40,534 bases of DNA from Phoronis australis (taxonomy: Eukaryota; Animalia; Phoronida): NCBI GenBank assembly GCA_002633005.1, contig NMRA01001202.1, positions 1 through 40,534 on the forward strand, given 5' to 3'. This document shows positions 2,876 through 33,904 of this stretch, in pieces (position 1 is the first letter of the stretch; every line of letters begins with the position of its first letter). The notes beneath the pieces were generated by a model that did not search any database, was not told the origin of the DNA, and was given only the letters and a program-made list of their open reading frames with translations. A program made the translations under genes and the position numbers.

Positions 2876-5680
2876 NGAACATTCTGAAACATGAGTGCAT
2901 CATTTGTTAGCAGGAAAGTACATTATGGGCCACATTTCAAGAAAGAGAAAGAAGTATAGCTTTCAAAAACAGGTACGTGTTTTTTAAAAATACATCTTAG
3001 TGTTTTCCATGTGTGTTTCAGTATTATCACCAGTTGTTTTTTAACTTGTTCTGCCCCTTGGCTGCCTAGGCCTTAGACAATACTGCTGACCCAGTAGAGA
3101 CGATGATCATACCATACGTACTTCATATGCCGGATACTTTTCGGCAAATTATGTTCCTATCAATTTAGAAGTACCGCGTAGAGAGATGCCTCTGAGGAGG
3201 TAGTTAATGTTTTCATTTGTTCCCAGTTTAAACAAATACTCCTGCAATCGAACACTCCATTCAGTTGCCACATCGACACTGCTTGCGCTAAGGGATAATC
3301 CTATGGCGTTATAGTGATTTTAAAGCACTTTAAGTCAAAAAAATTTGAGAAGGTTAAATGGAGTAGATGGTTGCAAACAACATGCCCAAGTGGCCGTCAT
3401 CCCCTGCCGAAGTCTCAATTTTTTGTAAACATTAATTACTTAGGTAGCTGCAATGATAATTAGATTAAAGTGCCTAAGTGGCCATCGTCGCCGTTGAAAT
3501 TTGAGGACGATTGAAGCCACTGTCCAACGTCGATTACCTTAAGTGTAAATCGATTGACTATGGTTTGAGCATCTGATTTTAAAAAATTGAATTTCAATCA
3601 CTGCACTGGTATATCAGCTGATTTATTTTCAGTTGCATCAACTAATCTAATTATTAGGCGATCAACATTTTAGGCGACAGATAAGACGGCATGTAAATTT
3701 GTTAGGCTGGTGGTGGATCAGTTCCTGATAAGTCCGTCTGAAAAAAGTTGCATGCCAACTCACTCATAGTTGAATGATAAATTAGTGTTAACAGTTCGGG
3801 TTTTTTTCAGTTGGACTTGTATCGCAAGCAACAGCTCAGTCCAGAGNAACACCTGGAATATTGGGGGAAGAAAGCTATCTCTGCCCCCAACCTTTCAATT
3901 GGTTGAGGGGCACCCCCCACTCCTCAGTATCTCTTCTTCAGCAGATCCATTTGATGTTTATTACATTCCTGACCCCCCTGGACAAAATCCTACAGGTTCG
4001 GTACCTGCACATTCTCCAATAACCTATTTCCATCTGCTCAGCTCTTATTACTGAGTCTCCCTCTTGCTTATGATTTATTTCTCGTAATTTACATTACCCT
4101 TGCTGCCCAAATTTTTTCTTGGATTACTCTATATTTTGCCTATGTGTATTTTTCCATTATAGTGCTCGTGTTTTTTGTTTTCAATATTTTAAACAAAGAC
4201 ACTTCACTGACAATTTTGAATTTGACAAACTAAGATCGGCAATAGTGAATGCCTTCCGTACTTCGTCGGCCCACACACACCCGCTAGGTGTCGCCACGGT
4301 CCATGACACAATAATGGCGGCGGCCTTGGTGAATAGTCTTGTTAGCGTCTTTGCCCGTCTTTGATAGGGGTCATCGTAAACCACGTGACTTCAACTCTTC
4401 TTTTTTATCTCATTGATTGGATCTTCTCTTACTAGTGTGTTAGGAACTTACTTTTTCAGCATCCGGGAATCAAGCTATGGTGTCATATACGGCACCCAGC
4501 GTATTTCTGTTTTTCCTTATAAATACTCACATATGTGGGTCGAATATATGAAATGACTATTATTTTTCTATCTTGCAGTGTTAATACTTCTAGTCCCAAC
4601 TTCCAACATGCAGTCGTAATATCAACAAATTTTTCGAACTCGATGAACTTGCGGAGACGCCATGAATGTGGTTGTATTATTGCGCTACCTGTGGATGACA
4701 ACTACGTCGTGTACATGTAAAGGAAATTTCAATCACAGTATTTTTTTTCGTGGCAATGTTATCCGCCGGCACTGCACACTTTTGCAGAGGTAATTCAAAT
4801 TAAGAAGAATGAGCTGTTGTGGATAGTAATGGTCCTTATATACCACCACTAGCTTATTTAAAGTACGTGGTCGTCTGGTAAAAAATGTACGTCGGAACCA
4901 CGCCTTCTCCAAGGCCCGTAAAGCGCGTGGTCGTTTGGAGGCCAAATGTTCACCCGACCACACGCGATATGAAACTCATTGAGCAAAATCGCATCGGGTC
5001 GGTACCGAAAAAAAATTAAAGCCTCTGCTATGCTCTCTGAGTCAATTAACTTGAAGTACGTGGTCGTCTGGTAAAAAAATGTACGTCGGAACCACGCCTT
5101 CCGTCCAGCAAGGCCCTCAAAGCGCGTGGTCGTTTGGAGGAAAAATGTTCACCCGACCACACGCGATATGAGACTTGAGCAAAATCGCATCGGGTCGGTA
5201 CCGAAAAAAAATTAAAGCCTCTACTATGCTCTATGAGTCAATATTATATGTAAATTGCGACTCGATTGCCAGTTTGTGTAACCATAGATTATAGACAACA
5301 GATTCGCAACTCCGGCATATGCTTACATGCTGAGCTGAACTCTCCTGACCTTTCTGCTGCAGTTTCCGGTTAGTGTATTTTGACGAGAACTACTTGCCTT
5401 CTTTTTTACTGTTCAAAACAACGAAAAAAATATTAATTTCGGCATTGAAACGCTTTTCAAAATCTTTCAATAGTAGAAGTGTTGGTATTGTGAGTACTTT
5501 TGGCAATGCTACTGGTAATTAATTACAAAATTCAAACTTCGGTGCCGACTGATTATGTCGTCTGCTTGCCCAATAGCAGCATAGTTATCGGACAGTTTTT
5601 GATTTATGGTTCATATAGGCCTACTGAGAAAACTACGAAAGCATGTTTATAAATCAACATTCTCAACTTGAAGTGAGCAG

Positions 5681-5717
5681 TTCTTCTGGGAACTGTTGAG
5701 TGGCTCTTAAAAGGGCC
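5681..5717 (-). terminator. Histone-type 3' stem-loop (distal) with purine-rich downstream element
   Basis: The - strand reads ccAAC-GGCCCT-TTTA-AGAGCC-ACTCA (one C-A mismatch), then AGAAGAA 14 nt downstream (5687-5681), the position expected for a U7-binding HDE. Confidence 0.7.
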
Positions 5718-5742
5718 GTTGGTTGCAGCTATAGCGTGAAAT

Positions 5743-5758
5743 GGTTCTTAAAAGAACC
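5743..5758 (-). terminator. Histone-type 3' stem-loop (proximal)
   Basis: The - strand reads caAC-GGTTCT-TTTA-AGAACC-Attt, a perfect 6-bp stem with 4-nt loop matching the replication-dependent histone consensus. It lies 10 nt after the TGA at 5769-5771. Confidence 0.75.
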
Positions 5759-5768
5759 GTTGAATAAT

Positions 5769-6234
5769 TCAACATAATTCACACAGTATACCATGCTCAC
5801 TCAAGTACTGAAGGTCCTCTTTATTCAAGTTTTCATCTGGGAAGGTTGGATGAAAACAGGAAATGACAATATCGATGACAGTTGTAACACCTTATATAAA
5901 TGTTACCGTTCTCCAACGATATCACGAAGCCTGCCTTTTTCAGTTCTTGTTCCTGGATTCAGAAGTAGCCCTGAACCATAGGGAAAAAAGACGTACTACG
6001 AAAACAAATCAAATTTTGAAAATCATCGCCTTCGTGTGATTACGTGTCGCTGTCGCCAGACTGTTGTTCCTCCCCAACATCAATGTCGAAAATCGACGTT
6101 ACAAGTGATGGAAACTTGTGTCCTTTGTTTCTAACTTTTAACCCATTTTTTAAGAAAGGGGTGTACTGATTTTGTCTAACGTTCATAGAGCATAACTTTT
6201 GGTTTTTACAATGCATTAATTGTGTTGAATGCAT
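5769..6234 (-). pseudogene. Intronless BIR (IAP-repeat)-like pseudogene carried inside the transposon
   Basis: The frame of ORF 6234-6040 continues past two stops as ...CFRSTSFFPMVQGYF*IQEQELKKAGFVISLENGNIYIRCYNC, then after a frameshift IDIVISCFHPTFPDENLNKEDLQYLSEHGILCELC*. This matches BIR hallmarks RxxSF, LxxAGF, CxxC and H-x6-C. The C-to-H spacing (about 27) is longer than the canonical 16. Confidence 0.55.
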
Positions 6235-6347
6235 TCATATTAGGTGGCTTCATTGAGTTGAACAGAAAATAAAATAAATGTAACACAAGATAAAGTTTTG
6301 AAAATAAATAGAACAGTAAAACAGGACTCCCTAAAAATCGAGCTGTT

Positions 6348-6404
6348 TTCAAAAACTTTGCGCCATTGGTGATCTGATTGGTTCATGCATTTACGGCGGG
6401 AAAA
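6348..6404 (-). promoter_or_regulatory. Cell-cycle-type promoter motif cluster upstream of the BIR-like ORF
   Basis: On the - strand: E2F-like TTTTCCCGCC (6404-6395), CCAAT twice (6381-6377, 6369-6365), GGCGC, and CHR-like TTTGAA (6353-6348), about 115-170 bp before ATG 6234. Confidence 0.5.
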
Positions 6405-7557
6405 TAATAGACCAAGTATCGTGCACGTGTGCACTGTAGCAACACTTTGTATCTTATTCTTATTTGGCCAATCTGTTGATACATTAAATTTCCTTATTTA
6501 TGCCCATCCTGATTTGACTGCAACTTGAGCTTGTTGGGTTCTACCATATATTGGGTTGGCATTGGGACCCACATGATGCTTACTCGAATGGGCTTCATTT
6601 TACCAATTATTTCAAATTGAGGTGAAGTAAATAAACAAAGTGGGTGATTATCATCACCAGAATTTCATCATTAGTATCTTTTGCCGGGTGCTCAAATTTT
6701 CTGAGACTAGGGATTGGGCAGATTTGTAAGGTAGAAGTGTTTCGCTGGATTTCCAGGTCTGTGGCGTTATTTATACCGGACCAAAATTAAAAAAACAGAC
6801 CTTTGTTTAAATCAGGAGCTGCATGATACACATTTATTAGACGTGCGCAGGCATTGCACTGATCACTTGAAACCATTTTTATGGTTTATTAATATATAGT
6901 TAAACCAAGCTGAGGAGCTTGAAACCTGATTCAAGGCAATTTTTGGCAGTGGTATTTTCTGAAAACTACAGCTCGTCGCAACTGTCTGTTACCGGTAAGA
7001 TGCCCCTGGCCCGCGGGTCCAGCACATTCATTTGCTGGAGCTCGAACACTGTAAGATTGACAGATATTTTTAACAATTATCTCCTGAGTTGGGCACGAAA
7101 GAAATAGTTACTTATGAAGCAAACTCTGGTCATAAACGGTTATAGCATTTACTGTTTACTTAATTACACGCGCCGGTAGCCAGGGGGGGAGGGTTCGGAA
7201 AAGGTCCTCCTAACTACTATACAGTTTCGGCCCAGCCGTGCATAGTGCGAGATTCCGGTGGGTGAGGTTGAGGCACAACTATTCAGTAGGTCGCGCTCAC
7301 GAAATGATGCGATCTTGACATGAATTTGATGAATGTATTGTACCTATCAATTTTCCTACTTCATATTCTTTTAAAAATGTCAGTATGTACTCATTCGTAA
7401 CACATACAGACAATTTCGCATTAGCATGAAATCCAAACAAAGCGTTTTAATAACAAGCGCGTTGTTTTTGGTATACTTACACCAGGCAGAGCCGCATCTA
7501 TGAACCGATGCATCGTTTTACTTTTTGAATTTAAAAGAACAAAAATTACACCTGAGC

Positions 7558-7715
7558 CAGAGCGGATCCACGAGTTTTAGTTAGGGGGGCCAGGGAAGAG
7601 TATTAGTCAGGATTTTGCCAGTCAGACATTCGCACCCTTGAACTGCGAAATGGAATGAGGAAGAGTTTATGGGGGGCATGATCTCTTGGTCCCTTCTGGC
7701 ACTAAATCCGTCACC
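7558..7715. mobile_element. Degenerate CAGTGGCGGAT-type MITE nested in the large transposon
   Basis: CAGAGCGGATCC...G-run...AATCCGTCACCG imperfect termini; no clear TSD. Confidence 0.45.
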
Positions 7716-8555
7716 GAGTCCGAGACAGGTAATAGATTCGTGGCACTATGCCCTTTGGGACCTATTTGTTTTAGTTCCTTCCCGACCTGGTGCTGGATGC
7801 AGGTCTTCCCCCTACAACATGTTGCGCTTTAGGCCTACCGCTCGGATGATGGCAGAGGACCTCGCCACGCAGGGCTGGTAGTCGGTAGAGGCCACCTAAT
7901 ACGGCAGGTGTTTATCTCGCGGACCACGCGGCAAGCTTGCCGCACTTGCCAGCTAGTGCGAATTTAGACTTACTATACCTACTATACACACCACACTTTC
8001 TACGTAAATGGGCGATAATCGGTATATTCTTTACCTAACTGAGCATTTCATATTTTAAATTGGTTATTACATATTTCGTTTTACAACATTGCCACATGAA
8101 CAACACCAACTTTTCCATAATAGGCAAAACACAAATTTCAATTACATATTGAAATGCTTGTGTTCTGTGTGCACCGACAAGAGATGCATTTTATAACAAG
8201 TACTGAAACACACAATTCTTCGTTAGATTTTTAATTTTATAAGTAACAACAATCACACCATGATTATTCTTATTCAACATGATAAACGGTGGCAATTGCA
8301 TTTCAAATGAATGACTATACAAGCAGCCTAGCGTTTTCTAGGACTCGTTTTATAAGACCATCGTAGCGGAAGTGGTCTGGTTTTCATCCACAGGTAGATA
8401 CTTGCAAAACTGACCGTTTACTACACTTCAAAATGACACCTATACCTTATTAAAACAGCCACCCCTCAAAATATTCCAACGTAGGGGTGGCTATCGTATA
8501 CTCCTTGAATTTGAACGGTTTCAATTTGCTTTTAAATGACCAGTTTCTTTTAAAG

Positions 8556-8980
8556 GGGCCGTGGTCCCGACGGATATTTTTTTTTACCATACGACCACGC
8601 ACTTTAAACGATTTAGAGAGGGTTGTCGGGGCAGTCAATTTTAGTCCCTACACGTACCTGACACAATTTTTCTCGAGTCTCAGATCGCTTGTGGTCGGGC
8701 GGTCATTTTTTCTCCTAACGACGGCGTGGTCCCGACGGATATTTTTTTACCATACGACCACTCGCTTTAAACGACTTCGACAGTGCTTGCCTTGTGGGCG
8801 GGAGACAATTTTTCGTCTTTACGACCACCACTTCCATCAGCAGCGTGGCCCGCGGAAATAATTCATACACGACGACCACGTTCAACTTCGTGGTCCAAGC
8901 GGATAAAATTTATCCATGCGACCATAGGTTTTAATTGGAGTTAAATTAATCCTATGTAGCGTGTGGCTGGTGGGACCACT
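8556..8980 (-). repeat. Right subterminal array, an inverted and diverged version of the left-end repeats
   Basis: GGCGTGGTCCCGACGGATATTTTTTTACCATACGACCAC resembles the reverse complement of the left-unit core. At least five GTGG...CGACCA pairs are present. Confidence 0.8.
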
Positions 8981-9565
8981 AAATCATCTTATTCAGCGAA
9001 CTGGGTAATACTGCAGCCTACACGGTGGGTTTAGTATAAGTCTGAGTAAACTATCTCGTAGTCATTTGGTGGTTATTTACACGACGTGCGTTCTCTTATT
9101 TTCAAAAGATGGCGTCAGTACGGGAGGGAATTTAGACGAGTACGGGAAATTCGTTCGTATTTGTGCAAGACTGGCTGTTTTAAAGCAAAAATAGCATCGC
9201 AAGGGGAGTATAGAATTTGCCTAGAAAGCATTGGTACCCAAGATAGTAACTTTATTTACCCAAAAAGGTGTAATTTATGGGAAAAACAGAAGTACGTTGG
9301 GTGCCATATTTGACACCAAGCTTGGTCCCTGAACAGATAAGGCTGCAGCCGCGGCCAAATTGCTAGAAGTAGGCCAGGCTTGGGGGCAGTTTTGAGACAG
9401 GTGTTGCACGTAGGCCCAGTGAATCCGGTTTATTTGTACTTGTGAACATGTTATTGTTGGGAATAAGACGAGCCGGTAGATGCATTCTTCAAGATGGTGG
9501 CCCCCTGTCATTTACATTGACATTGCAGCGCCAGCTGTGCATTGCCGATTAGCGAATAAGAAGTC

Positions 9566-9898
9566 CAGTGGCGGATTTAAGGGGGGGGTAAGGGGCCATG
9601 GTCCTCTCTAAAATTATCCCAGATTCAATATGACAATATGGCAGTTGGGGGATGTGCAAATTGCTGACTAACACATGCGCACACCAGGGGGGCTTGGGGG
9701 GGGGGCGGGGCGAATACACAATGTCAATGCATAGGCCCTAATTGAACAAACCCATTTTTTTTAATGTCCTCAAACTCAAAAATTCGAGACCCCTACATCC
9801 CTACATTTTTGGCTGGGCTATCGCATGAGGCGAAATTCTGGTTATTCCTAGCTGCACCCTAGTAGCCCCCCCCATTCAAAATCCTGGATCCGCTCCTG
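9566..9898. mobile_element. CAGTGGCGGAT-type MITE with 5-bp TSD AAGTC
   Basis: Ends CAGTGGCGGAT...ATCCGCTCCTG, with AAGTC at 9561-9565 and 9899-9903. The copy B equivalent starts at 27889 and runs into the gap. Confidence 0.75.
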
Positions 9899-12477
9899 AA
9901 GTCGGTTGCAATTTCCCCAGGTAGTCCTCAAACAAANTTTTGGCTGGGCTATCGCATGAGGCGAAATTCTGCTTATTCCTAGCTGCACCCTAGTAGCCCC
10001 CCCCCATTCAAAATCCTGGATCCGCTCCTGAAGTCGGTTGCAATTTCCCCAGGTAGTCCTCAAACAAAGACAAGCCCGTCGCCAAAAAAGGAAACCACGG
10101 TTGTTGATTGACAGCACTTTTGGACCACATTCTTGGAATCTGTCACCAGATTCGCTTTAAGAGTCGGTCAGTGTGCTGCGGCCTGCATGTGCTAGTGTGG
10201 TTCAGTAGAGTGAAAAATGCCATTTTTTCCTCTCGTTGGAGTATGAGAAAGGGCTAAAAATACATGTCTGAGTAATTTTTTGTGTTCATGTGTTGGGATT
10301 TTGATGTGAAATGATCACTATGCAGTATTCTTTACATGTGGTTTTTGACCGAGTGAAGAGAAGGTGATGGGGCCATTTTGTTACTTGCTAGACAGTATGT
10401 GAGAACTGCTACATGGCCCAAGAACGAGTTTGTGGCCTATTTTTAAATTACGTTGCACATTAGCTCGCCAGAGGACGTGGGTCTAANGGGGATCAGGGCG
10501 AATGAACAATGTCAATGGATAGGCCTTAATTGAACAAACCCAGTTTTTTTAAGGTCCACAAATTCAAAAATTCGAGACCCCTACATCCCTACATTTTTGG
10601 CGGGGCTATCGCATGAGGCGAAATTCTGGTTATTGAGAGTCAATCAGCCAGTGTGATGCGGCCTGTGCCAGTGTGGTTCAGTAGAGTGAAAAATGACATT
10701 TTTTCCTCTCGTTGGAGTACGTGAAAGGGCTAAAAATACATGTCTGAATAATTTTTTGTGCTCATCTGTTGGGATTTTGATGTGAAATGATCACTATGCA
10801 GTATTCTTTACATGTGGTTTTCGACCGAGTGAAAAGAAAGTGATGAGTCCATTTTGTTACTTGCTAGACAGTGAGAACTGTTATGTGGCCCAAGAACGAG
10901 TTTGTGGCCTATTTTTAAATTCCGTTGCACATTAGCTCGCCAGAGGACGTGGGTCTAAAAAGTTTTTGAGAAGGTGAAGACCTTTTGCATGCGGAACATT
11001 TTCTCTTGAGCAGTAGTTGCATAAAATGCTGACAAAATAAGAATTTAGGAAACTAGCGCTTTTGAGATTTCATCTTGAACATATACAAGGCCATCAAACG
11101 AAATATGATTATTGTTATTGATACCGTTGTTTTGCTATTGATGTATACCTTCTTTTTTTCCTTAATCTTACTATAGACATGGTCGTGTATTCCACATAAT
11201 ATCAGATTGGTACATGAAAAGAATCCTACTTTGACACCCTCACCAGTCGAGATTGGGCAACTCGGCCAATTTGCATACCATAGAATCTGGTACACTTTAG
11301 TCTGTTACTAGCATGGTTTGTACTGTAAAGTCATCATAAAACAATTTTTGGTAATTTTCCCTTTATTTTCAGTAAAGTAATCAGGTGTTGAAAATGAAAG
11401 AATTGCAATTATTCTTGAGGAAAATACATTTGGGAATTACCATATTTACAAAATTATAGCTCCATGAATACATTTCTCTATGCACACTCTACTACTTTTA
11501 AGAGTTTCACTTTTTATTGGTCGTGCAGTTTTTAACGACATAATAATCCTATATTTCTACTTCCAGCTGTTGATATCGGTGAGGGGAATTGATATGAATC
11601 TACATAAGGGCAAGAGGTCACTGCTGATGTGAGTAATGAAGGCATAGATGTCACCATTTTTAAGGGACACGTGGATAGCCCAAATGAAACTTATGGTCTT
11701 GGATGTCATGCTGTACATAATGGCGGCAGTGCAAGGGATCTGAGGAGAGCCACATCAAGCCAGAGGTATTCCAAGAGCTGACTGGTGCTATTAGAGTCTC
11801 CTGGATACAGGTTTATGGAGTGTGCTGGTGANTCCATGAATACATTTCTCTATGCACACCCTACTACTTTTAAGAGTTTCACTTTTTATTGGTCGTGCAG
11901 TTTTTAACAACATAATAATCCTATATGTCTACTTCCAGCTGTTGATATCGGTGAGGGGAATTGATATGAGTCTACATAAGGGAAGAGGTCACTGCTGATG
12001 TGAGTAATGAAGGCATAGATGTCACCATTTTTAATTGACACGTGGATAGCCCAGATGAAACTTATGGTCTTGAATGTCGTGCTGTACATAATGGCGGCAG
12101 TGCAAGGGATCTGAGTAGAGAGGAGAGCCATATCAAGCCAGAGGTATTCCAAGAGCTGACTGGTGCTATTAGAGTCTCCTGGATACAGGTTTATGGAGAG
12201 TGCTGGTGAATATGTAACAGGTTCTCATCAGGTAGCATTGTTGTGGCGTGTTGTAACTGATTAATCACTTAGTTGCAGAAAAAAATGTTCTCTTGTGCAT
12301 TTGACAGAACTGACTGTTGAGAGACCATACCAGTGCTTGCGGATTGTCTTTTAAACGTATGTGATCTTTTCGAACCTACAAGAATACGCTCTGGTATGAT
12401 ACGATTCGTGTGCAGTGCTTGTGGGTTGTCTTTTAAACTAAACTTGTTCATCGTAAAAGCTTGTGCCGTGGTGAGAA

Positions 12478-13290
12478 ATGCACAAATGCACCAGGTGTGG
12501 AGAGTCTTTGAAACTGAATTGTGATCTTGATAATAACATAGAAATGCACATTGATGAGAGACCATACCTGCCTAGCACGAGTGGAAAGTTCAGTAATACC
12601 TGTGTTGTACGCACACAACCACACAAAAGTGTGAGATCTTACAAATGTACTGTGTGTGGAAAGTCGCTTTCTGGGAACTTAGCTCTTGTTGAGCACACTA
12701 GAACACATACTGGGGAGAGGCCACACAAGTGTACTGTGTGCAGAAAGTCATTTTCAAGGCGTTTTGCTCTGCTTTTACACACAAGATTACACACTGGTGA
12801 GAGACCATACATGTGTGCTGTGTGCGGAAAATCATTTCCAGGAAATACTGGTCTTGCCGAGCACACAAGAACACATACTGGTGAGAGAGCCTACAAGTGT
12901 ACTGTTTGTGGAAAATCATTTGCGAGGAATCATAACCTCATTGTACATATGAGAACACACACGGGTGAGAGACCATACAAGTGTGACGTGTGTGGAAAGT
13001 CGTTTCCAGCGACAAAAAATTTGACTTCACACACGAGAACACACACTGGTGAGAAACCATATAATTGTTTTGTGTGTGGGAGGTCGTTTTCACAGAGAGG
13101 CACTCTTGTTGAGCACACAAGAATACACACTGGAGAAAGGCCTTACCAGTGTAATGTGTGTGGAAAGTCATTTTCATCGAAAAATAGCCTGAAAGCACAC
13201 ACAAGAACACACACGTGTAATGTGTGTGGAAAATCGTATTTACATCGTAGTCGACTGGTCAGGCACAAAAAAACTCACACTGGTGAGTGA
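12478..13290 (+). CDS. Tandem C2H2 zinc-finger protein, copy A: 8 canonical fingers, shortened paralog or allele of copy B
   Basis: 270-aa ORF with TGERP linkers. Relative to B it has an in-frame loss of three fingers (hybrid finger 5/8), loss of linker residues GDKRYK before finger 11, and a CGA>TGA stop at 13288-13290 that removes finger 12. Confidence 0.8.
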
Positions 13291-13860
13291 CCTTTTGGGT
13301 GTACTGTGTGTGGAAAATCCTTTAAAAGAAATTATGTTCTCATTGCGCACATTAAAAAACACACTAGTGAGAGGCTGTAGAGTTTGCAATGTATGTGAGA
13401 GAATAATGGCTGATCACATGACAACAAGCATAGACAAGAGATCATACTAGTGTGACGTGTGGCGAATCATTTCCAAAGAGTTACCACCTCTGAATTCATG
13501 CAAGAAAACAAACAAGTGAAAGACCATACAGGTGTTTTACTTATGGAAAGCAGTCTTCAAGTTCTTCTCTTGTGCACAGGGTTTAGGCTGGTGAGAGGCC
13601 ATACAACTGTTCTCTGTGTGTGGGAGGTTGTTTCGACTGGAAGATAGTCTTGTTGTTCGTATAAGAAAGCTACCACTGAGAATCCCTACTGGTGTAGTGT
13701 ATGTGTGTGGGAAGTCATTTTTACAGAGTAGTTATCTTCCTAAGCACACACAAACACACACTGTTGAGAAAACCTTCAAATATATTGTGCGGAAAATTGG
13801 TTTCAGATAATAGTATTCTGGCTAAGCATGCAAATAATACACTTTGATAAAAGACCATCC
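13291..13860 (+). pseudogene. Untranslated finger 12 plus decayed C2H2 fingers downstream of the copy A stop
   Basis: [24 protein letters not shown] follows the TGA, then the same broken remnants as in B, e.g. [19 protein letters not shown]. Confidence 0.75.
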
Positions 13861-16800
13861 ATTCTTATGTTTAGTATTACAGTAATGTTGTAATCCTTTG
13901 CACTGATAAATGACTGCCTTTTTGGATTAAAGCCTCTATGAAACGCTTCATTTTATAGATAAGGATTCGTACAAAAGTGGCCAAGGAGGTTTCAATATGT
14001 ACTTGTGTATGTTTGTTGTTTTAATTTAAAGTGGGTATTGGATTTTAGTGAGGTACTTTCAGAAAGTAATTGGCACCTAGTGGTGGTGCTACAAAGTACA
14101 GGTCATCCACCAGTCATGTCTTGTGAATGCTTAATCTGTGCTTTTCTAGTCCAAACTGTTGATGAATGCCTTTGGCACCAACTTATAACTTCAGGTCTTC
14201 AAATTTAGTGCAACTCATATTGTTTTTTCACAATAATTATTGGTCTACTTATGCACTAACTCGATTAATGAGAACCCTGGCCAGAAACTAGTATTAGCAA
14301 AAGATCTGGATGTTTAACACGAATCCTAAAAACAAATGCCATCTGCTCAGTGATTAGCAAATGATACATGATGATAGACCTCTGGGAGTCTTACCTCTGA
14401 ACCGAAGTCATAGCTTCTGTCATCAGACCAGGGTTTGATTGCAGCTAAGGCTAAATGTCAGAAACAAAACAGTGGCTAGAATCATTAATACATTTCCACT
14501 CTGGCCAAACTGCTTGATGCAAAGTTTGGATCATTGTAGCCTAAATACTAGTGGTTTTATCTTCTTTACATTTTAACGTGATATGGTCAAGTGATAAGAT
14601 GATTTTACTAGGTATTATTTGTTTGCTTAATGAATAAGAAACCTCAGCTTTGTAAATATTGTAATCATAGTTTATTATTGTTATATTTGAGTTTGTAAGC
14701 TGCAACTATTTCACTGTTATGTATGTGGCTGATCTAGGATTACCATAAGGGGGAGGACAACATTTTGCCTCGGGGAATTGCGCTTAGCGCGACTTTATGT
14801 GCACTGGCGGGAGGGGGGCGGGGATGTGGACCTCCTCTTAAAAAAACAGAAAATTTCGGTGGTCTAAAAAAACTGCAACGATTCCGCCGCGATCTGGGGT
14901 CTGAACCCCCCCTCATCCGCTACTGGTCCTAGTTACTGAACTTAATATTTCCTCACGCTTTATGCTGTTGCTGTTTCCTTTTGGATGCGGCAGGCAACTG
15001 AAGTGGGGGGGAGGGGCGCCTATGTGTTTTACTGATGGGCATTTCAACGTTGATTTATATTGGATACTTACAAAATTATGTTAGTATACCTCAGCTGCAC
15101 GACTGTTGTATTGTTTTCAGGATGAACTGTTCTGTTCGATCTGACGTTTGTTGCAGTCACTAACTTTTATAACACTCCATCAGCTTATTTATTTTTAATA
15201 TCAACTTATATAAACTTTTTACTTATATAACGACGTGATGCCTTTCGCTGATCTACCGAGGACAACACGCCAATGTGCAGCTCAAAACTAGTGAATAACA
15301 CAGCTGCGGCCAATTTAACTTCAAGAAGTTGAATTTCCCCGAAAATTGTTTAAAAAAGTAACCTTTATTATTTGAGGCCAAATAGTTTTCCCAATTGTTT
15401 TTTAGACTACACAATTTTTCTTAAGCTGATCAAAGCATTTTTCCCGGAATCTGGGGTAATTCTTGGACCCTGGCCGGAGATCGCCACCAAAACGTTATAG
15501 TGAGCCGCATGTTCAGAGCGGGTTGATATGATACAGCAGAGACATCCCGTGGCCGGGTGCATCAGATGAAGCAGTCCCTGGACACTGAAATATAGGGTCT
15601 CAACAATGTTCCTTACCTTTGCACTGTTTGTGGGCTTGTCAACTGTTACACTGATTGAGGCATGAAACGCGAAAGGTCGTCCGTCAAAAATATCTTAAAC
15701 AATTCCTGACAAAAGTACCATCTCGTAACGTACGTCTAGTACATAGTAATTCACTTTCCACTGTGAGGAATTTTCCACAAAAATTACTAGACAATTTTTG
15801 AAATATGCGCGAAAGAAAAACTGGCCTGTATGCCAAACTCATGCAGTGATGCGGCATTGCACCCGCCCTCCTGTCTGAACTGCGTACCAGCCTACTTCAG
15901 TAAAGCCTTACCAGTTGGAAGACACTGCCAAATTTGTTACTAGATAAACATCAGCTAGTAACCTGGGAGTAATTGATATTGGTCCTAGCTAGTAACCAAT
16001 GTACTCGGACCAGTAAACCGGTAAAAATCCATTCATAATCATTTATATTATCAATATGGCCTTCAAAAAGATAGTGTATGAGAAGCATAAGCGCTGCCTC
16101 ATTGATTGTAGTTCCGTAACATCTGTTTTGGTTCATCCCGGCTCAAATGCGAAAGACGTGTTTTTTTTTAATCAAAACACTACAAAAGTAGCAGAGAACG
16201 TTTTCAAGTTTTGCGGCGGGCTGTGTTCATCAGAGACTATTGTACAACAACGCGACTTCTGAGGCAAATATTTTGCTCATGATGCGATGAATGTAAGAGG
16301 GCTAATTTGTTGCGAACTCGCCGGCTGGAGCAGGTCACTGTAAATGGTATTGGCAGAAAGAATAATTCCTCGTGGTTTGTTGAACCCCTGTTATATGTAA
16401 ATTTATAGAGTTTTGTGTTTGCTATGGACGGCTCAAGTGAAGCACCCGTGGAATTTCTAGTCCGGAGTGTCATACCTTGTAGTATATATATACAGTGTAT
16501 TGGGGACGATCAGAAGCTGAGGACGCCTGTGCTGGCTGCTACCGACCACCTGGCGGCACGCAGGGAACCAGCGAGCCCATAACCAAGTCTTGTTGTACTT
16601 CAACTTGGAATCCTGCTTAATCTCAAGAATAAGCGGAAGCGAGTCTTGCGTGAACTTGGAATTCCAAGAACAAGCAAGTGATCTTGAGATTAAGCAAACT
16701 GCCAAACCCCGTACGTGAACTTGGAATCTTGCGTGAACTTGGAATTAAACGGCTGCCTGGCACACAATCACAGAACAAGGCGCTTGGGCTGAAATTGTTA

Positions 16801-24884: not shown

Positions 24885-26406
24885 GTACCATCAAGAATAT
24901 TAGCGCTGGCAAAAAGCTAATGACATCTAATTTGGTCACCCTGTGTTCTTTGTAGTGTCTTATGAAATTTAGTAACAGTTATATACACTACAAACCGTGT
25001 AGTATTGCACTGTTTGTAAATCCTTCTAGTATATCAAGATACATGGTTGTTCTTCATTCCATAACCAGTGTTTGTAGTTTTTAGCTTATAACTTCATCGA
25101 TTTTTAAAAATCAAAAACCATAAAATTGATATTTTCAGCTGAATACAGCCAAAAATTATCGGTTAATGCTTTTTGAAAACTGTCCAGTATGTACAGGCAG
25201 AGACGTTTACTATGTACACTTTATGGCCGGGTAACACTTAATTGGGTCGACTAACGCTCGCACCGGACAAAGCGGTGACACAACTGTGTCCAATTCTTGT
25301 GCCACGCTCTCTTTGATGCTCCAAACAAGACTGAAGAAGCTGAGCAGTGAAAATTCCTGCATATAATTAGAAGTGCACATTTTCCTTGCAAGCGGTGGCA
25401 TGAAAGTTGCCAACAGTTGCCAACATGAGCAACTAAACAAAGGGCATGTTCGAAAAAAGGTTGATTGAAGGAGTATTTGTTTGACTTGGGAGGAGTTGAA
25501 GACATGAACAGCCTCCACAGGCCGGGTGTCCCTCTATGTGCAAAAGATACTTATATTGTAGAGCAATGACTTTGATAGTTTAATCAGTGAGAGGCATTTA
25601 ACAGAAACAGCTTCTGGTATATGGAGTTCCTATAGGAAGGCCACATGCAGTCTCTAACTCGGTGCCAGATTGAGACGTACTGTCTACACTATTTTGTCTT
25701 ACTAACTAATCAATTCCTTCACACTATAGTTTCAGGCCAGCAAACTGACTGCATGGCTATATGTAATTTGCAAAAACAATTCATGACCAGTGACCGTGCT
25801 CTCACCTCAGTGACCACTGTCTCTAAGAGACGGTGTAGCTCCTATAGGAACTTCATACACCGGAAGCTTTTCGGCGAGTTATGCCTGATGCTGACAAAAT
25901 ATGAAAGTCCCATTGTTGATAAGTACCTTTTGCACATAGAGGGACATCATAAGAGCTAGGCCATGGATGTAAATTCAATTCCTTCACTCAAAGAAATTAA
26001 CTCCTGTTATCAAACTTTTCTTTGAGCAGTCCCTTGTTCAGTTTCCAAAATCGGTAACTCGCCATTTTTCATATGACGTCATACCACCTACCGTGCTCAG
26101 TGTTAAAAATGACGAGTTGTCAATTTTGGGAACTAACGATCGGGATTGCTCAAAGAAAAACCTCTGCGAAATGTACCTCGGTTATAACCATAGTTAATCA
26201 TCATCATGGTAACATTTCTCAGGGGAAGTTTGAGTTGGAAGGAATTAAATACATTGGCGGCATCCTAAAGGTGTCCTTTGCGCAAAAGGTATTTATAACA
26301 ACGTGACTTAGATGCTTCCGACGTATGAAGCGTCTATAGGAGCTCCACCATCTCTACTGCAGAGAGGCAGTAGAGATGGTGCTCACAGTCTATGCTGTCC
26401 GTCACT

Positions 26407-26828
26407 GTGAACTTGGAATCCTGCTTAATCTCAAGATTGAGCGGAAGTGAGTTTTGCGTGAACTTGGAATTGAATATAAGACAGAAAGGTGAAATTTTTG
26501 TTAGGTGAAAAGAATTTTTGTATTTATTGAATTCGCAATCAACCAGTTTCTCCTTTACTGTATCTTGTGTCTCTGAACCAGAGGAATATGTGAATGGCTA
26601 AATCGATTGGGTTTGGCCGGTGAAACTGATTGCCCATAAGTTCAAAAGATTGGTTACAATTGACAATATTATATTCAAATGTAACTTGATTTAGTGCATT
26701 GCAAATTAAAAATTTATAAACACGAACATAATTATTTGAGTGAACTTGTCAAGTTGTCTCAGGTATTCCAAGTTCACGCAACACTCACCTCTGCTTAATC
26801 TTGAGATTAAGCAGGATTCCAAGTTCAT
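26407..26828. mobile_element. Same MITE in copy B
   Basis: Colinear with 975-1397, both TIRs present. Confidence 0.85.
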
Positions 26829-26857
26829 GCACCTACAGCATTCTCTTGACTCAAGAG

Positions 26858-26976
26858 AGTTAAACACGTAACCTTGCGTAACCAGGGTTACCCTTAGAGT
26901 TTAGCTGACTCAATCAAGACTTGAGTCAGCTAAACTCTAAGGGTAACCCTGGTTACGCAAGGTTTCGTGTTTAACT
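26858..26976. repeat. Near-perfect 119-bp hairpin
   Basis: 56-bp arms (26858-26913 and 26921-26976), one mismatch, 7-nt loop. Confidence 0.92.
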
Positions 26977-27128
26977 GAGACAGCTAGCATATTGGAAGTT
27001 CCGAGAAGTCTTGACACCGAAGATAGAAATACAAAGCCATATTTTATCTGCTAACTAAAACCGACCTATGTGAGTATTATGAGAGAAAAAGTCCATGCAG
27101 TTCCAGGACTTGCTTGTCACTTTTACCA

Positions 27129-27234
27129 CAGGCGTCCTCAGCTTCTGATCGTCCCCAATACACTACATATAATAGTTAATACTAGTAGTATTATATGTAG
27201 TGTATTGGGGACGATCAGAAGCTGAGGACGCCTG
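27129..27234. repeat. Perfect 106-bp hairpin
   Basis: 46-bp arms (27129-27174 and 27189-27234), 14-nt loop. Single arms occur at about 16493-16529 and 35381-35416. Confidence 0.92.
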
Positions 27235-27964
27235 GGGGCTAGACACGGACCATTCATAACCAGAAACAAACAACTACGTACTTAGGCGTGCACAAACACT
27301 CAATCCTAAATTCGTATTCCACACAACGACATAAAGAGGATTGGCACATACCAACTCAATAAAATTCACAGATACAGATTACGGTTTTGGCCGTTCACCG
27401 GTTCACGCATCGTTTGTTGCCATTGACTTTCCTTGGAGCTGAAACTCTCTAGTTCTCTGTATGTCCGCTAGGAGGAAGAGATCACGTGCTCTCTATTTCC
27501 TAGCGGACACGTAGGGAACTAGAAAGGGGGTCATCGTAAACCACGTGACTTCAACTCTTCTATATTTATCTCATTGATTGGATCTTCGCTTACTCTGTTA
27601 GTGTGATTAGGAACTTACTTGACTACTTTTTCAGCATCCGGGAATCAAGCTTGGTCACTAAACAGATAAGGCTGCAGCCGCGGCCAAATTGCTAGAAGTA
27701 GGCTAGGCTTGGGGGCAGTTTTGAGACAGGTTTTGCACGTAGGCTCAGTGAATCCGGTTTATTTGTACTTGTGAACATGTTATTGTTGGGAATAAGACGA
27801 GCCCGTAGATGCACTCTTCAAGATGGTGGCCCCCTGTCATTGACATTGACATTGCAGCTGTGCATTGCTGATTAGCGAATGAGAAGTCCAGTGGCGGATT
27901 TAAGGGGGGGGGCAAGGGGGCCATGGTCCTCTTTAAAATTATCCCAGATTCAATTTGGCAGTTC

Positions 27965-28390: not shown

Positions 28391-29071
28391 TGGCCCAAGA
28401 ACGAGTTTGTGGCCTATTTTTAAATTACGTTGCACATTAGCTCGCCAGAGGACGTGGGTCTAAAAAGTTTTTGAGAAGGTGAAGACCTTTTGCATGCGGA
28501 ACATTTTCTCTTGAGCAGTAGTTGCATAAAATGCTGACAAAATAAGAATTTAGGAAACTAGCGCTTTTGAGATTTCATCTGGAACATATACAAGGCCATC
28601 AAACGAAATATGATTATTGTTATTGATACCGTTGTTTTGCTATTGATGTATACCTTCTTTTTTTCCTTAATCTTACTATAGACATGGTCGTGTGATCCAC
28701 ATAATATCAGATTGGTACATGAAAAGAATCCTACTTTGACACCCTCACCAGTCGAGATTGGGCAACTTGGCCAATTTGCATACCATAGAATCTGGTACAC
28801 TTTAGTCTGTTACTAGCATGGTTTGTACTGTAAAGTCATCATAAAACAATTTTTGGTAATTTTCCCTTTATTTTCAGTAAAGTAATCAGCTGTTGAAAAT
28901 GAAAGAATTGCAATTATTCTTGTGGAAAATACATTTGGGAATTACCATATTTACAAAATTATAGCTCCATGAATGCATTTCTCTATGCACACTCTACTAC
29001 TTTTAAGAGTTTCACTTTTTATTGGTCGTGCAGTTTTTAATGACATAATAATCCTATATTTCTACTTCCAG

Positions 29072-29524
29072 CTGTTGATATCGGTGAGGGGAATTGATAT
29101 GAGTCTACATAAGGGCAAGAGGTCACTGCTGATGTGAGTGATGAAGGCATACTGATGTCACCATTTTTAAGGGACACGTGGATAGCCCAAATGAAACTTA
29201 TGGTCTTGGATGTCATGCTGTACATAATGACGGCAGTGCAAGGGATCTGAGTAGAGAGGAGAGCCATATCAAGCCAGAGGTATTCCAAGAGCTGACTGAT
29301 GCTATTAGAGTCTCCTGGACACAGGTTCATGGAGTGTGCTGGTGAATATGTAACAGGTTCTCATCAGGTAGCATTGTTGTGGCGTGTTGTAACTGATTAA
29401 TCACTTAGTTGCAGAAAAAAAGATGTTCTCTTGTTGTGCATTTGACAGAACTGACTGTTGAGAGACCATACCAGTGCTTGCGGATTGTCTTTTAAATGTA
29501 TGTGGTCTTTTTGAACCTACAAGA
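29072..29524 (+). pseudogene. Decayed N-terminal linker-coding part of the zinc-finger exon (copy B; equivalents at about 11567-11831 and 11939-12477)
   Basis: Follows the acceptor-like ttctacttccag. Translates as VDIGEGN*YEST*GQEVTADVSDEG / TDVTIFKGHVDSPNETYG...EESHIKPEVFQE, an acidic linker with an IKxE motif, stops and frameshifts. Confidence 0.5.
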
Positions 29525-30799
29525 ATGCGCTCTGGTACGATACGATTCATGTGCAGTGCTTGTGGGTTGTCTTTTAAACTAAGCAACCGTCTTGTTCATC
29601 GTAAAAGCTTGTGCCGTGGTGAGATGACGTACAAATGTACCAGGTGTGGAGAGTCTTTGAAACTGAATTGTGATCTTGATAATAACATAGGAATACACAT
29701 TGATGAGAGACCATACCTGCCTAGCACGAGTGGAAAGTTCAGTAATACCTGTGTTGTACGCACACAACCACACAAAAGTGTGAGATCTTACAAATGTGCT
29801 GTGTGTGGAAAGTCGCTTTCTGGGAACAGTGCTCTTGTTGAGCACACTAGAACACATACTGGGGAGAGGCCGCACAAGTGTACTGTGTGCAGAAAGTCAT
29901 TTTCAAGGCGTTCTGCTCTGGTTATACACACAAGATTACACACTGGTGAGAGACCATACATGTGTGCTGTGTGCGGAAAGTCATTTCCAGGAAATACTGA
30001 TCTTGCCAAGCACACAAGAACACATACTGGTGAGAGAGCCTACAAGTGTACTGTTTGTGGAAAATCATTTTCGAGGAATCATAACCTCATTGTACATATG
30101 AGAACACACACGGGTGAGAGACCATACAAGTGTGACGTGTGTGGAAAGTCGTTTCCAAAGAGCTGCCACCTCAGTGTTCACATGAGAACGCACACTGGTG
30201 AGAGACCATACAAGTGTATTGTTTGTGGAAAGTCGTTTTCTATGAATTCTTCTCTTATTGTACACACAAGACTGCACACTGGTGAGAGGCCGTACAAGTG
30301 TTCTGTGTGTAGCGAGTCATTTTCACAGAAAGGTCATCTTGTTATCCATGGAAGATCCCACACTGGTGAGAGTCCCTACAAGTGTTCTGTGTGTGGCAAG
30401 TCATTTACAGCGAAAAATAATTTGACTTTGCACATGAGAACACACACTGGTGAGAGACCATATAATTGTTCTGTGTGTGGGAGGTCGTTTTCACAGAGAG
30501 GCACTCTTGTTGAGCACACAAGAATACACACTGGAGAAAGGCCTTACCAGTGTAATGTGTGTGGAAAGTCATTTTCATCGAAAAATAACCTCACAGCACA
30601 CACAAGAATACACACTGGTGACAAACGATACAAGTGTAATGTGTGTGGAAAATCGTTTTTACAGAATAGTTACCTGGTCAGGCACACAAAAACACACACT
30701 GGTGAGCGACCTTTTGGGTGTACTGTGTGTGGAAAATCCTTTAAAAGAAATTATGTTCTCATTGCACACACTAAAAAACACACTAGTGAGAGGCTGTAG
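29525..30799 (+). CDS. Tandem C2H2 (Kruppel-type) zinc-finger protein, copy B: 12 canonical fingers plus 3 degenerate N-terminal fingers, no recognisable effector domain
   Basis: Open frame with 12 C-x2-C-x12-H-x3-H units joined by TGERP-type linkers. The ORF-track start at 29474 is GTG; the first in-frame ATG is 29525 (others at 29549 and 29624). The true start is uncertain. Confidence 0.9.
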
Positions 30800-31280
30800 A
30801 ATTTGCAATGTATGTGAGAGAATAATGGCTGATAACATGAGAACAAGCATAGGCAAGAGACCATACTAGAGTGACGTGTGGCGAATCATTTCCAAAGAGT
30901 TACCACCTCTGAATTCATGCAAGAAAAAACACAAGTGAAAGACCATACAGGTGTTTTACTTATGGAAAACAGTCTTCAAGTTCTTCTCTTGTGCACAGGG
31001 TTTAGGCTGGTGAGAGGCCATACAACTGTTCTCTGTGTGTGGGAGGTTGTTTTGACTGGAAGATAGTCTTGTTGTTCGTATAAGAAAGCCTACTGCTGAG
31101 AATCCCTACCGGTGTAGTGTATGTGTGTGGGAAGTCATTTTTACAGAGTGGTGATCTTCCTAAGCGCACACAAACACACACTGTTGAGAAACCCTTCAAA
31201 TATATTGTGCGAAAAATTGGTTTCAGATAATAGTATTCTGGCTAAGCATGCAAATAATACACTTTGATAAAAGACCATCC
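30800..31280 (+). pseudogene. Decayed C2H2 fingers downstream of the copy B stop (probable 3' UTR)
   Basis: Broken remnants such as ICNVCER..., GKRPY, GESFPKSYHL*IH, SERPYRC, AGERPYNC and VCGKSFLQS, with stops and frameshifts. Confidence 0.75.
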
Positions 31281-33591
31281 ATTCTCATGTTTAGTATTAC
31301 AGTAATGTTGTAATCCTTTGCATTGATAAATGACTGCCTTTTTCGATTAAAGCCTCTATGAAACGCTTCATTTTATAGATAAGGATTCTTACAAAAGTGG
31401 CCAAGGAGGTTTCAGTATGTACTTATGTATGTTTGTTGTTTTAATTTAAAGTGGGTATTGGATTTTAGTGAGGTACTTTCAGAAACTAATTGGCACCTAG
31501 TGGTGGTGCTACAAAGTACAGGTCATCCACCAGTCATGACTTGTGAATGGAGATCAGCTTAATCTGTGCTCTAAAAAATGGAGGAGAAACTTTGGGTTTT
31601 CTAGTCCAAACTGTTGATGAATGCCTTTGGCACCAACTTATCAACTTATAACTTCAGGTCTTCAAATTTAGTGCAACTCATATTGTTTTTTCACAATAAT
31701 TATTGGTCTACTTATGCACTAACTCGATTAATGAGAACCCTGGCCAGAAACTAGTATTAGCAAAAGATCTGGATGTTTAACACGAATCCTGAAAACAAAT
31801 GCCATCTGCTCAGTGGTCAGCAAATGATACATGATGATAGACCACTGGGAGGCTTACCTCTGAACCGAAGTCATAGCTTCTGTCATCAGACCAGGGTTTG
31901 ATTGCAGCTAAGGCTAAATGTCAGAAACAAAACAGTGGCTAGAATCATTAATACATTTCCACTCTGGCCGAACTGCTTGATGCATTGTTTGGGTCATTGT
32001 AGCCTAAATACTAGTGGTTTTATCTTTTTTACATTTTAACGTGATATGGTCAAGTAATAAGATGATTTTACTAGGTATTATTTGTTTGCTTCATCAATAA
32101 GAAACCGTAGCTTTGTAAATATTGTAATCATAGTTTATTATTGTTATATTTGAGTTTGTAAGCTGCAACTATTTCATTGTTATGTATGTCTCAGAACCAT
32201 TTCAAGTTGATATTACTCTACTCTGTTAAGCAATATCTGGTTATTATCCCTCTAAGCATCACTACAATGACTTTCCAGAAGTGCAACCCCTCTATTTGGT
32301 GGCAGCCTTAAAGTTTTGGACAAAATTTTGTTGTTTTGACTTTTCTCTCTATATTAGAACACTCTAACATCTTTTGCCACCATAAGAATTTATCCACCTG
32401 GCGTTTTTAGTTATTTTTCTTTAGAAAGCAGGTCCAGTGAAGATGACTCCCAGCCCGTTCTTTAAGTACAAACGGTAACTATGGTTACTTGCACCCTGTG
32501 AACTTTATTCACTGACAACAGCCAAACCAAAACCCGATGCTAAAGAAGCTAAACAACGCTGCATTATGGTAACTTTCAGTATGCAGAACAGAAATGGAAA
32601 ATTTCAACTTTTCTTCAATATCCATTTCCATTATTCAAAGCGAAAACCAGGGCTTGAAATTTTCCTCTTTTAAATAAAAGGAATTCCTCATGTTTGGTTT
32701 CGATTTCTTCTCATTTGATTTCCAGTTTTCACTCTTTTGTTTCTTTTTTATATTATTTTGACTCCATTCATGCAAAAATATTTATCACACAAACCTATTT
32801 ATTTGTGGAACCATACATTTCCTGCAAAGTTTTCCTCTTTTTTGTCATTTGGTCATATCAAGCCCTGGAAAATAGAAAATCCAATTTTGTTCAATATCAC
32901 ATTTCCAATAAACAAAATAAAAATAAAAAATTCAACTTTCCTCTAATATAATTATATGAAACGAAACGGAAAATCCATCTTTTGTTTATTGATTATCTCA
33001 GTTCCTGGAATGCAAATCGAAAATTGTAAATACAATGTTCTTCAACCCTCGAACATGGTTCCAAGTACTAGTTCAATCAAACTCTTATAATCTGCGACCT
33101 TGCAACATGCAAGCTGCAGGTCACACATGGCGCTGTCGAGAACCTAGGACCACTAGCACTGATTTTTATTTCACTTGGCGAATAGCGTTTATGGACAGTC
33201 AATGTGACGTTATGGATTCTAGTTTGATTGACGGCACGTTGTAAACGATTTGATTCTAGATGAATATGGCAGACGGATCATCATGATAGGGCGGGGCAAG
33301 TGCCACAGCACAACTGACAGTGTCAACGAAACTGAAACTTGGACCGACTACAGCTATATGTAGTGTACACGTTCGACAGTGAGAGAATTAGATATCAGTA
33401 TTACATGGAACCACGTTCGAGATTCGCAGTTCCATATTTTACGAGGCCGGAATCATGAAAATTACTGTGTTCAAAAACAGGTCCAGGTTATAAAATTAAA
33501 TTCACTGGAACATTGGGCATAGCACATTTTGGGTTACGCTGAAAAGGATGAGTACTGCCGAAATTTAGGTATGGGCGATTGGGTATTGTTA

Positions 33592-33904
33592 CAGTGGCTG
33601 ATCTACGATACCATAAGGGGGAGGGCAGCATGTTGCCTCGGGGAATTGCGCTTAGCGTGACTTTATGTAAACTGGCGGGAGGGGGGCGGGGATGTGGACC
33701 TCCTCTTAAAAAAACAGAAAATTTCGGTGGTCTAAAAAAACTGGCAACGATTCCGCTGTGATCTGGGGTCTGAACCCCCCCCCCTCCCCTCCCTCATCCG
33801 CTACCGGTCCTAGTTACTGAACGTAATATTTCCTCACGATTTACGCTGTTGCTGTTTCGTTTTGGTTGCGGCAGGCAACTGAATGGGGGGGGGGGGCGCC
33901 TATG
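33592..33904. mobile_element. Same MITE family, TSD TGTTA/TGTTC (copy A equivalent 14725-15024 is 5'-clipped)
   Basis: CAGTGGCTGAT...GGCGCCTATG with near-matching 5-bp flanks. Confidence 0.7.

Follow-up and report, generated by a model that had tools for sequence, protein, structure and literature searches.

Twin histone-type stem-loops behind a decayed non-histone gene in a likely transposable element of Phoronis australis

A decayed gene on the minus strand of Phoronis australis contig NMRA01001202.1 is followed by two histone-type stem-loops. We think it probable, if well short of certain, that the element in which it lies is multi-copy and likely transposable, that the copy at hand has decayed, and that its intact counterparts likely produce mRNA in the histone style, lacking poly(A) and processed by SLBP and U7, steps that we infer from the evidence below. 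The gene is predicted to work like a histone gene at its 3' end, and the element is likely a case of mobile DNA that borrows the histone-message pathway. The 40,534-nt stretch of the contig that was analyzed (the window) is repeat-rich animal DNA in which C2H2 zinc-finger genes are present.

The gene stops at 5771-5769, and a histone-type stem-loop with a perfect 6-bp stem (5743-5758, minus strand; Rfam Histone3, 22.8 bits, E = 1.5e-3) follows after a 10-nt gap, both exactly where an earlier note on this DNA had placed them. That note's second stem-loop, succeeded by ACTCA and a purine-rich element, is present as well (5702-5717, minus strand; 28.2 bits, E = 1.5e-5), with a single C.A mismatch in the window copy. 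Beyond hairpin 2 and its ACTCA lies a candidate histone downstream element (5681-5690, minus strand), which includes AGAAGAA at 5687-5681 and places GAAGA at +16 from the hairpin. Both hairpins score lower than the Histone3 gathering score of 34 and so were missed by a default Rfam scan. Chance hairpins were rejected as an explanation: the 20-nt hairpin consensus matched twice in the window and was absent from 100 of 100 shuffles. Hairpin 1 alone folds at -7.0 kcal/mol (z = -4.05); in the complete 3' region of the window copy, the best fold cross-pairs both hairpins. Hairpin 2 stands in an AC-rich context for cleavage, with a properly spaced purine tract; hairpin 1 has neither, and no downstream element belonging to it was found. 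Hairpin 2 is the likely processed 3' end, as predicted from these features. PMC5054213 gives the U7 box as UCUUU, with which GAAGA at +16 could pair through one G.U pair, although this holds for the general box only; as read from its sequence, the downstream element of the window copy appears weak. Neither AATAAA nor ATTAAA occurs between the stop and the element end at 5283.

The hairpins are kept in other copies of the element. At the mismatched position of hairpin 2, a pairing base was found in 108 of 111 RNA reads, in 2612 of 2620 units of contig depth in sequencing run X4, and in 384.5 of 384.5 in run X2; the one contig of organism B pairs there too. The mismatch is therefore nearly private to the window copy, and both hairpins persist elsewhere while the ORF of the window copy decays.

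That ORF is intronless (5769-6253, minus strand; candidate start codons at 6253 or 6238) and, at roughly 155-160 codons, fits the length of about 155 given previously. It is spread across three frames with internal stops, and its breaks lie near 6206, 6176, 6146, 6040, 5959, and 5858. Among the best-supported differences, 722 of 847 units of contig depth in X4 lack the stop at 6040-6042, and 68 of 117 RNA reads from other copies show an indel where the frame breaks near 5858. The window copy is dead. A protein homologue search covering 1.84 billion representatives returned three matches, of which P0003 (66%, E = 4e-25) and P0005 (55%, E = 5e-6) are unnamed singletons from short contigs; P0004, a repetitive 2930-aa sequence, was dropped as spurious. 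By these alignments, the ORF is assigned to a real, small, non-histone protein family. P0005 spans the break near 5858 in one frame and shares the terminal CxxC, indicating that the stop before hairpin 1 is the real end of the gene. The absence of introns is apparent from the colinearity of the ORF with P0003 and P0005, and no minus-strand splice joint was among those listed in the RNA data. The claim that no histone ORF is present holds for 5283-10500: six frames of this stretch (with X at stops) matched neither a histone nor any other Pfam family, so that neither a histone remnant nor a transposase lies there, and the ORF instead matches P0003 and P0005. A leftover histone gene was accordingly rejected; the locus does not code for a histone, as a replication-dependent histone gene would.

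The product of the ORF is Cys/His-rich and looks, at the level of its motifs, like a PHD-like (C4HC3) zinc finger. Composite Cys/His spacing from P0003, P0005, and the frames of the window is CxxC-x34-CxxC-x4-H-x2-C-x24-CxxC, where 34 and 24 are approximate; no single record holds all eight zinc ligands, and the window copy is without the first pair. C4HC3 is the ligand pattern of PHD and RINGv fingers. The label "BIR-like" that the gene had been given earlier did not survive. It had arisen from the small size, an "EL..AGF" stretch, CxxC, and a late His and Cys, yet the spacing of a BIR zinc site (CxxC-x16-H-x6-C) is absent from all four sequences checked (P0001, P0002, P0003, and P0005), and Pfam gave no BIR match, so BIR identity was rejected. 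Searches of Pfam, PHROGs, NCBIfam, and PDB sequences with the ORF or its homologues found no credible family. A word-based homologue search found none for P0001, only P0005 itself for P0005, and none among longer proteins. In the ESM Atlas, P0005 had no usable match, and the best match of P0003 (0.81) reached the level of a lead only. Two AlphaFold models were poor (pLDDT 46 and 49), and fold searches with them returned nothing usable, a result that, given such models, does not inform on the fold.

Upstream of the ORF, on the minus strand, an E2F-like site (TTTCCCGC, 6403-6396), two CCAAT boxes (6381-6377 and 6369-6365), and a CHR (TTTGAA, 6353-6348) form a promoter-like cluster (6348-6403) that was reported earlier and is indeed there. 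The window contains a single combination of E2F with two CCAAT boxes, where 0.045 per 40 kb would be expected. In other copies the CHR reads TTCGAA, not TTTGAA (55 of 55 RNA reads); both are among the three commonest functional CHR forms in PMC4176359. Among copies, the CHR is thus predicted to change only into another functional form. The same paper keeps the E2F/CHR (DREAM) promoter type apart from histone promoters and describes CHR and E2F sites as mostly absent from histone genes (PMC4176359). The "histone-style control" proposed for this gene is therefore restricted to its 3' end, where it stands; for the promoter it does not, because this is of the E2F/CHR type. No TATA box was found in the promoter region of the ORF, and no transcription start site near the CHR is visible in three RNA runs. 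CHR promoters peak in G2/M, a stage when hairpin mRNAs normally get degraded, and so a tension remains between the G2/M expression that the CHR predicts and the reading of a histone-type end.

The element was studied through public sequencing runs, 8 of 10 listed runs being mapped. Contigs aligned to 5250-6300 numbered 866 in X4 and 242 in X2, most of them less than 99% alike, and 19 came from a run bearing another organism label; the element is a family of many divergent copies, for which depth is no copy number. Its left end (5283-5318, plus strand), defined by a pile-up of read and contig breaks, begins with CATAG and probably represents a terminal inverted repeat. The breaks accumulate at 5281/5283, and the flanks beyond are mixed, with an agreement at 5283 of 0.45-0.53 in three RNA runs and 0.46 across 11 contigs in X2. 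Many reads depart at 5318 into one other sequence; the tip of about 36 bp also occurs in a sister repeat of greater abundance, suggesting that the two families have a short terminal repeat in common. We take the CATAG terminus to be a signature of the P superfamily; a P-element terminus signature was not found in the literature searched. Upstream of the promoter, divergent reads and contigs cover the element without interruption (6404-6850); at about 6850 this cover gives way to a further abundant repeat (about 6852-6965). The earlier description of the locus as transposon-borne is likely right, given the many divergent copies and the sharp left end with mixed flanks. No transposase was found in 5283-10500, and neither the right end of the element, an inverted partner of its left end, nor a target duplication pair was found in the window.

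Other repeats surround the element. The piece at 6852-6965 belongs to a highly transcribed repeat, other copies of which, to judge by loose ends, have a tRNA-like B-box, and so it is possibly a SINE; no tRNA genes were found. Two copies (92%) of a repeat with a tandem internal unit of about 190 bp occupy 1894-2875 and 4367-5246, the latter ending just left of the hairpin-bearing element. Long, near-perfect palindromic small repeats lie at 1812-1890, 26858-26976, 27126-27237, and 27445-27526. Blocks 89-98% alike are duplicated (1-1417 versus 25423-26853; 10886-15783 versus 28391-34672) with N gaps beside them, and the large ones each carry a C2H2 zinc-finger gene (12475-13290 and 29462-30799). 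They represent either a segmental duplication or two haplotypes assembled in tandem.

Three RNA runs (X8, X9, and X10), picked by species label and of unspecified library selection, were read to 18-19% each. They cover the element family on both strands, and only 64 of 1679 X8 reads are at least 99% alike to the window copy, implying that the RNA reads stem from other copies. Sense-strand depth did not drop past the hairpins (20 to 22 to 39 in X8; 33 to 36 to 48 in X9), and no pile-up of molecule ends was listed in the three runs. RNA also covers the sequence upstream of the promoter and the antisense strand, a pattern that fits element copies read through inside host transcripts. The expectation that ordinary RNA-seq would miss this family is contradicted by these runs, which cover it on both strands and through the hairpins. 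With selection unspecified and many source copies, the data show read-through RNA and are still compatible with a hairpin-ended mRNA. A GT..AG intron (5368-5942, plus strand) belongs to an antisense transcript that runs inward from the left end and skips both hairpins. Its splice joint (5367>5943) was seen in 8 reads of X8, 8 of X9, and 0 of X10, with the first mate on the minus strand in all; sixteen splice reads in one orientation fix the library strand and establish the antisense transcript. This spliced plus-strand transcript, 5283-5367 joined to 5943, enters the ORF; it may be the 5' portion of a transposase mRNA or a regulator acting in antisense.

The same 3' design recurs behind other genes. 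A scan of metagenome contigs with the exact twin-hairpin pattern found 12 loci, none of them relatives of the window's element; the exact pattern was absent from 596 Gb of prokaryote genomes, and a narrower one from viral contigs. Histone3 recognized 11 of the 12 with an E value no higher than 0.01, and the gathering score is reached by 4. Each array comprises 2-7 hairpins. Of 74 pairs at the two stem positions left free, 68 were Watson-Crick and 6 were G.U; none was C.A, although the search pattern permitted such pairs, and tandem copies are not independent. An RRRGA downstream tract was found in 4 of 13 outside arrays. Upstream DNA was present for 10 of the 12 loci and absent for 2, and no histone family was found at any of the 10 (covered by the long ORFs at 7 loci and by three upstream frames at 4). 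A frame of at least 90 codons ends 6-83 nt before the first hairpin in 7 of 10 arrays with long upstream DNA; random window sites show this arrangement in 4% of cases. The seven include the transposase of L001, the Elongin C-like gene of L004, and a probable Polinton polymerase, all described next.

A histone-type end on a transposase is seen most clearly at locus L001 (1239-3280, minus strand), where seven histone stem-loops in tandem and a purine tract lie behind an open 601-codon piggyBac-type transposase (PF13843, E = 3e-94). In L004 (82-705, minus strand), four histone stem-loops follow an intronless, divergent Elongin C-like gene (E = 3e-8). The frame of L008 (1-1014, plus strand) ends 6 nt before twin hairpins, and L009 (92-2198) has two converging genes, each of them ending in twin hairpins; from polymerase motifs, we presume both to be Polinton genes, and the frame of L012 to be MADF-like, although no library confirmed these assignments. 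The long ORFs of L002 and L009 are not alike, and no relatives of the P0005, L008, or L009 frames were found in viral contigs. Two near-consensus histone stem-loops in L013 (1663-1678 and 2639-2654, plus strand), which we take to be a flavivirus-like record, lie inside a long viral polyprotein frame; one was a single-hairpin search match, treated as unrelated, and the other lay outside that search result. Unrelated non-histone genes elsewhere show the twin-hairpin design as well.

In the reading that we favor, the E2F/CCAAT/CHR promoter would drive transcription of intact copies in cells that divide or belong to the germline, and DREAM would silence that promoter in resting cells. SLBP would bind both hairpins, and the purine tract that follows hairpin 2 would pair with the U7 snRNP, leading to a cut about 5 nt past this hairpin. 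Hairpin 1, retained in the mRNA, would serve as a second SLBP site and may raise export, translation, or stability. Given such a promoter and such a 3' end, the element would express its accessory protein in SLBP-rich, replicating settings such as oocytes, embryos, and stem cells.

The hairpins could instead be SLBP-binding sites (a translation enhancer, a stabilizer, or an SLBP decoy) in longer read-through or polyadenylated RNAs that undergo no U7 cut. This is unlikely in our view, if the best placed of the alternatives: the continuation of sense RNA beyond both hairpins, arrays with more hairpins than one cleavage needs, and the rarity of a clear downstream element in the outside arrays all speak for it, whereas the cleavage context and well-spaced purine tract that set hairpin 2 apart from hairpin 1, and the lack of a poly(A) signal as far as the element end, speak for processing.

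It is quite improbable that an ancestor of the element once acquired and duplicated a histone 3' end that has been carried neutrally since then, with the ORF and promoter as unrelated debris. Gene-fragment capture by transposons happens, a young family of copies conserves all its content, and the window copy is dead. Such a capture is hard to square, however, with the lack of a histone coding remnant, with the spacing of 10 nt between a hairpin and the genuine stop of a protein family seen in independent records, with stems that differ between the two hairpins and yet are each paired, and with a design that recurs behind unrelated genes, none of the 10 with upstream DNA being a histone gene. 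Lastly, a dispersed host gene family, or part of a larger, virus-like (Polinton type) element rather than cut-and-paste cargo, which would still use the histone-type end, is very improbable: neither a transposase nor a second terminus is in view, and the presumed Polinton genes of L008 and L009 (by their motifs) bear the same twin hairpins, but the end is sharp, its flanks vary, its 36-bp tip is common to another repeat, and viral contigs and viral structures gave no match.

A wider reading than the one we favor for the locus is tentative, and we would put it somewhat short of probable. Tandem histone stem-loops may be a general and convergent signal by which animal mobile DNA (cut-and-paste transposons, Polinton-like elements, and their cargo genes) is expressed, yielding SLBP/U7-made, poly(A)-less mRNAs for dividing or germline cells; here it would serve a PHD-like chromatin reader that helps the element to target host chromatin or to escape it. 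Invertebrates at large would then have non-histone U7 substrates of a class so far hidden. Histone mRNAs are taught to be the sole clients of the SLBP/U7 pathway, which would gain a second clientele if mobile-element genes used it. In that event poly(A) RNA-seq would undercount transposon expression, and elements could match the timing of their proteins to replication or to oocytes rich in SLBP. As a search handle the twin-hairpin motif is cheap, and it returned no histone gene at 10 of 10 testable loci. The full-text literature searched, including PMC13525598, PMC4455052, PMC10045372, and 10.64898/2026.08.17.745202, yielded no description of histone stem-loops behind transposon or other non-histone genes; subscription journals, Repbase Reports, and supplements were outside its scope, and a prior description there is possible. 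The accessible text of the adintovirus paper PMC8502044 does not mention stems, hairpins, or polyadenylation, and that of 10.64898/2026.10.14.759114 does not mention non-histone or transposon cases.

Of the known systems, the 3' end of animal replication-dependent histone mRNAs (RF00032 and downstream element, with SLBP, the U7 snRNP, and CPSF73) is matched by a 16-nt hairpin flanked by AAC on its 5' side and AC on its 3' side. Like histone genes, the locus has a hairpin near the stop, no intron, a purine tract about 16 nt downstream, and no poly(A) signal behind the stop, and a consensus 3' stem-loop does lie close to the stop, though below the gathering score in the window copy. It differs in being a non-histone gene in a repeated element, with two tandem hairpins and a TATA-less E2F/CHR promoter; according to PMC5054213, histone mRNAs are apparently the sole mRNAs processed via the stem-loop/U7 route. 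With DREAM/MuvB promoters it shares an E2F site, a CHR preceded by two CCAAT boxes, and the lack of a TATA box, the full set of sites being present in its sequence; those promoters, however, are defined in mammals, and at the locus the CCAAT boxes are just 12 bp apart. PHD and RINGv fingers resemble the composite ligand pattern, but the first loop of the ORF family is unusually long, and no Pfam, PDB, Atlas, or fold match links the two, while BIR proteins resemble the ORF only in the features that suggested them at first and differ in their zinc-site spacing. With TIR DNA transposons that carry cargo, of the P superfamily or others, the locus shares dispersed copies, the sharp CATAG end, varied flanks, a tip common to two families, and an inward spliced transcript; they differ from the locus as found in having a transposase, a second end, and a target duplication.
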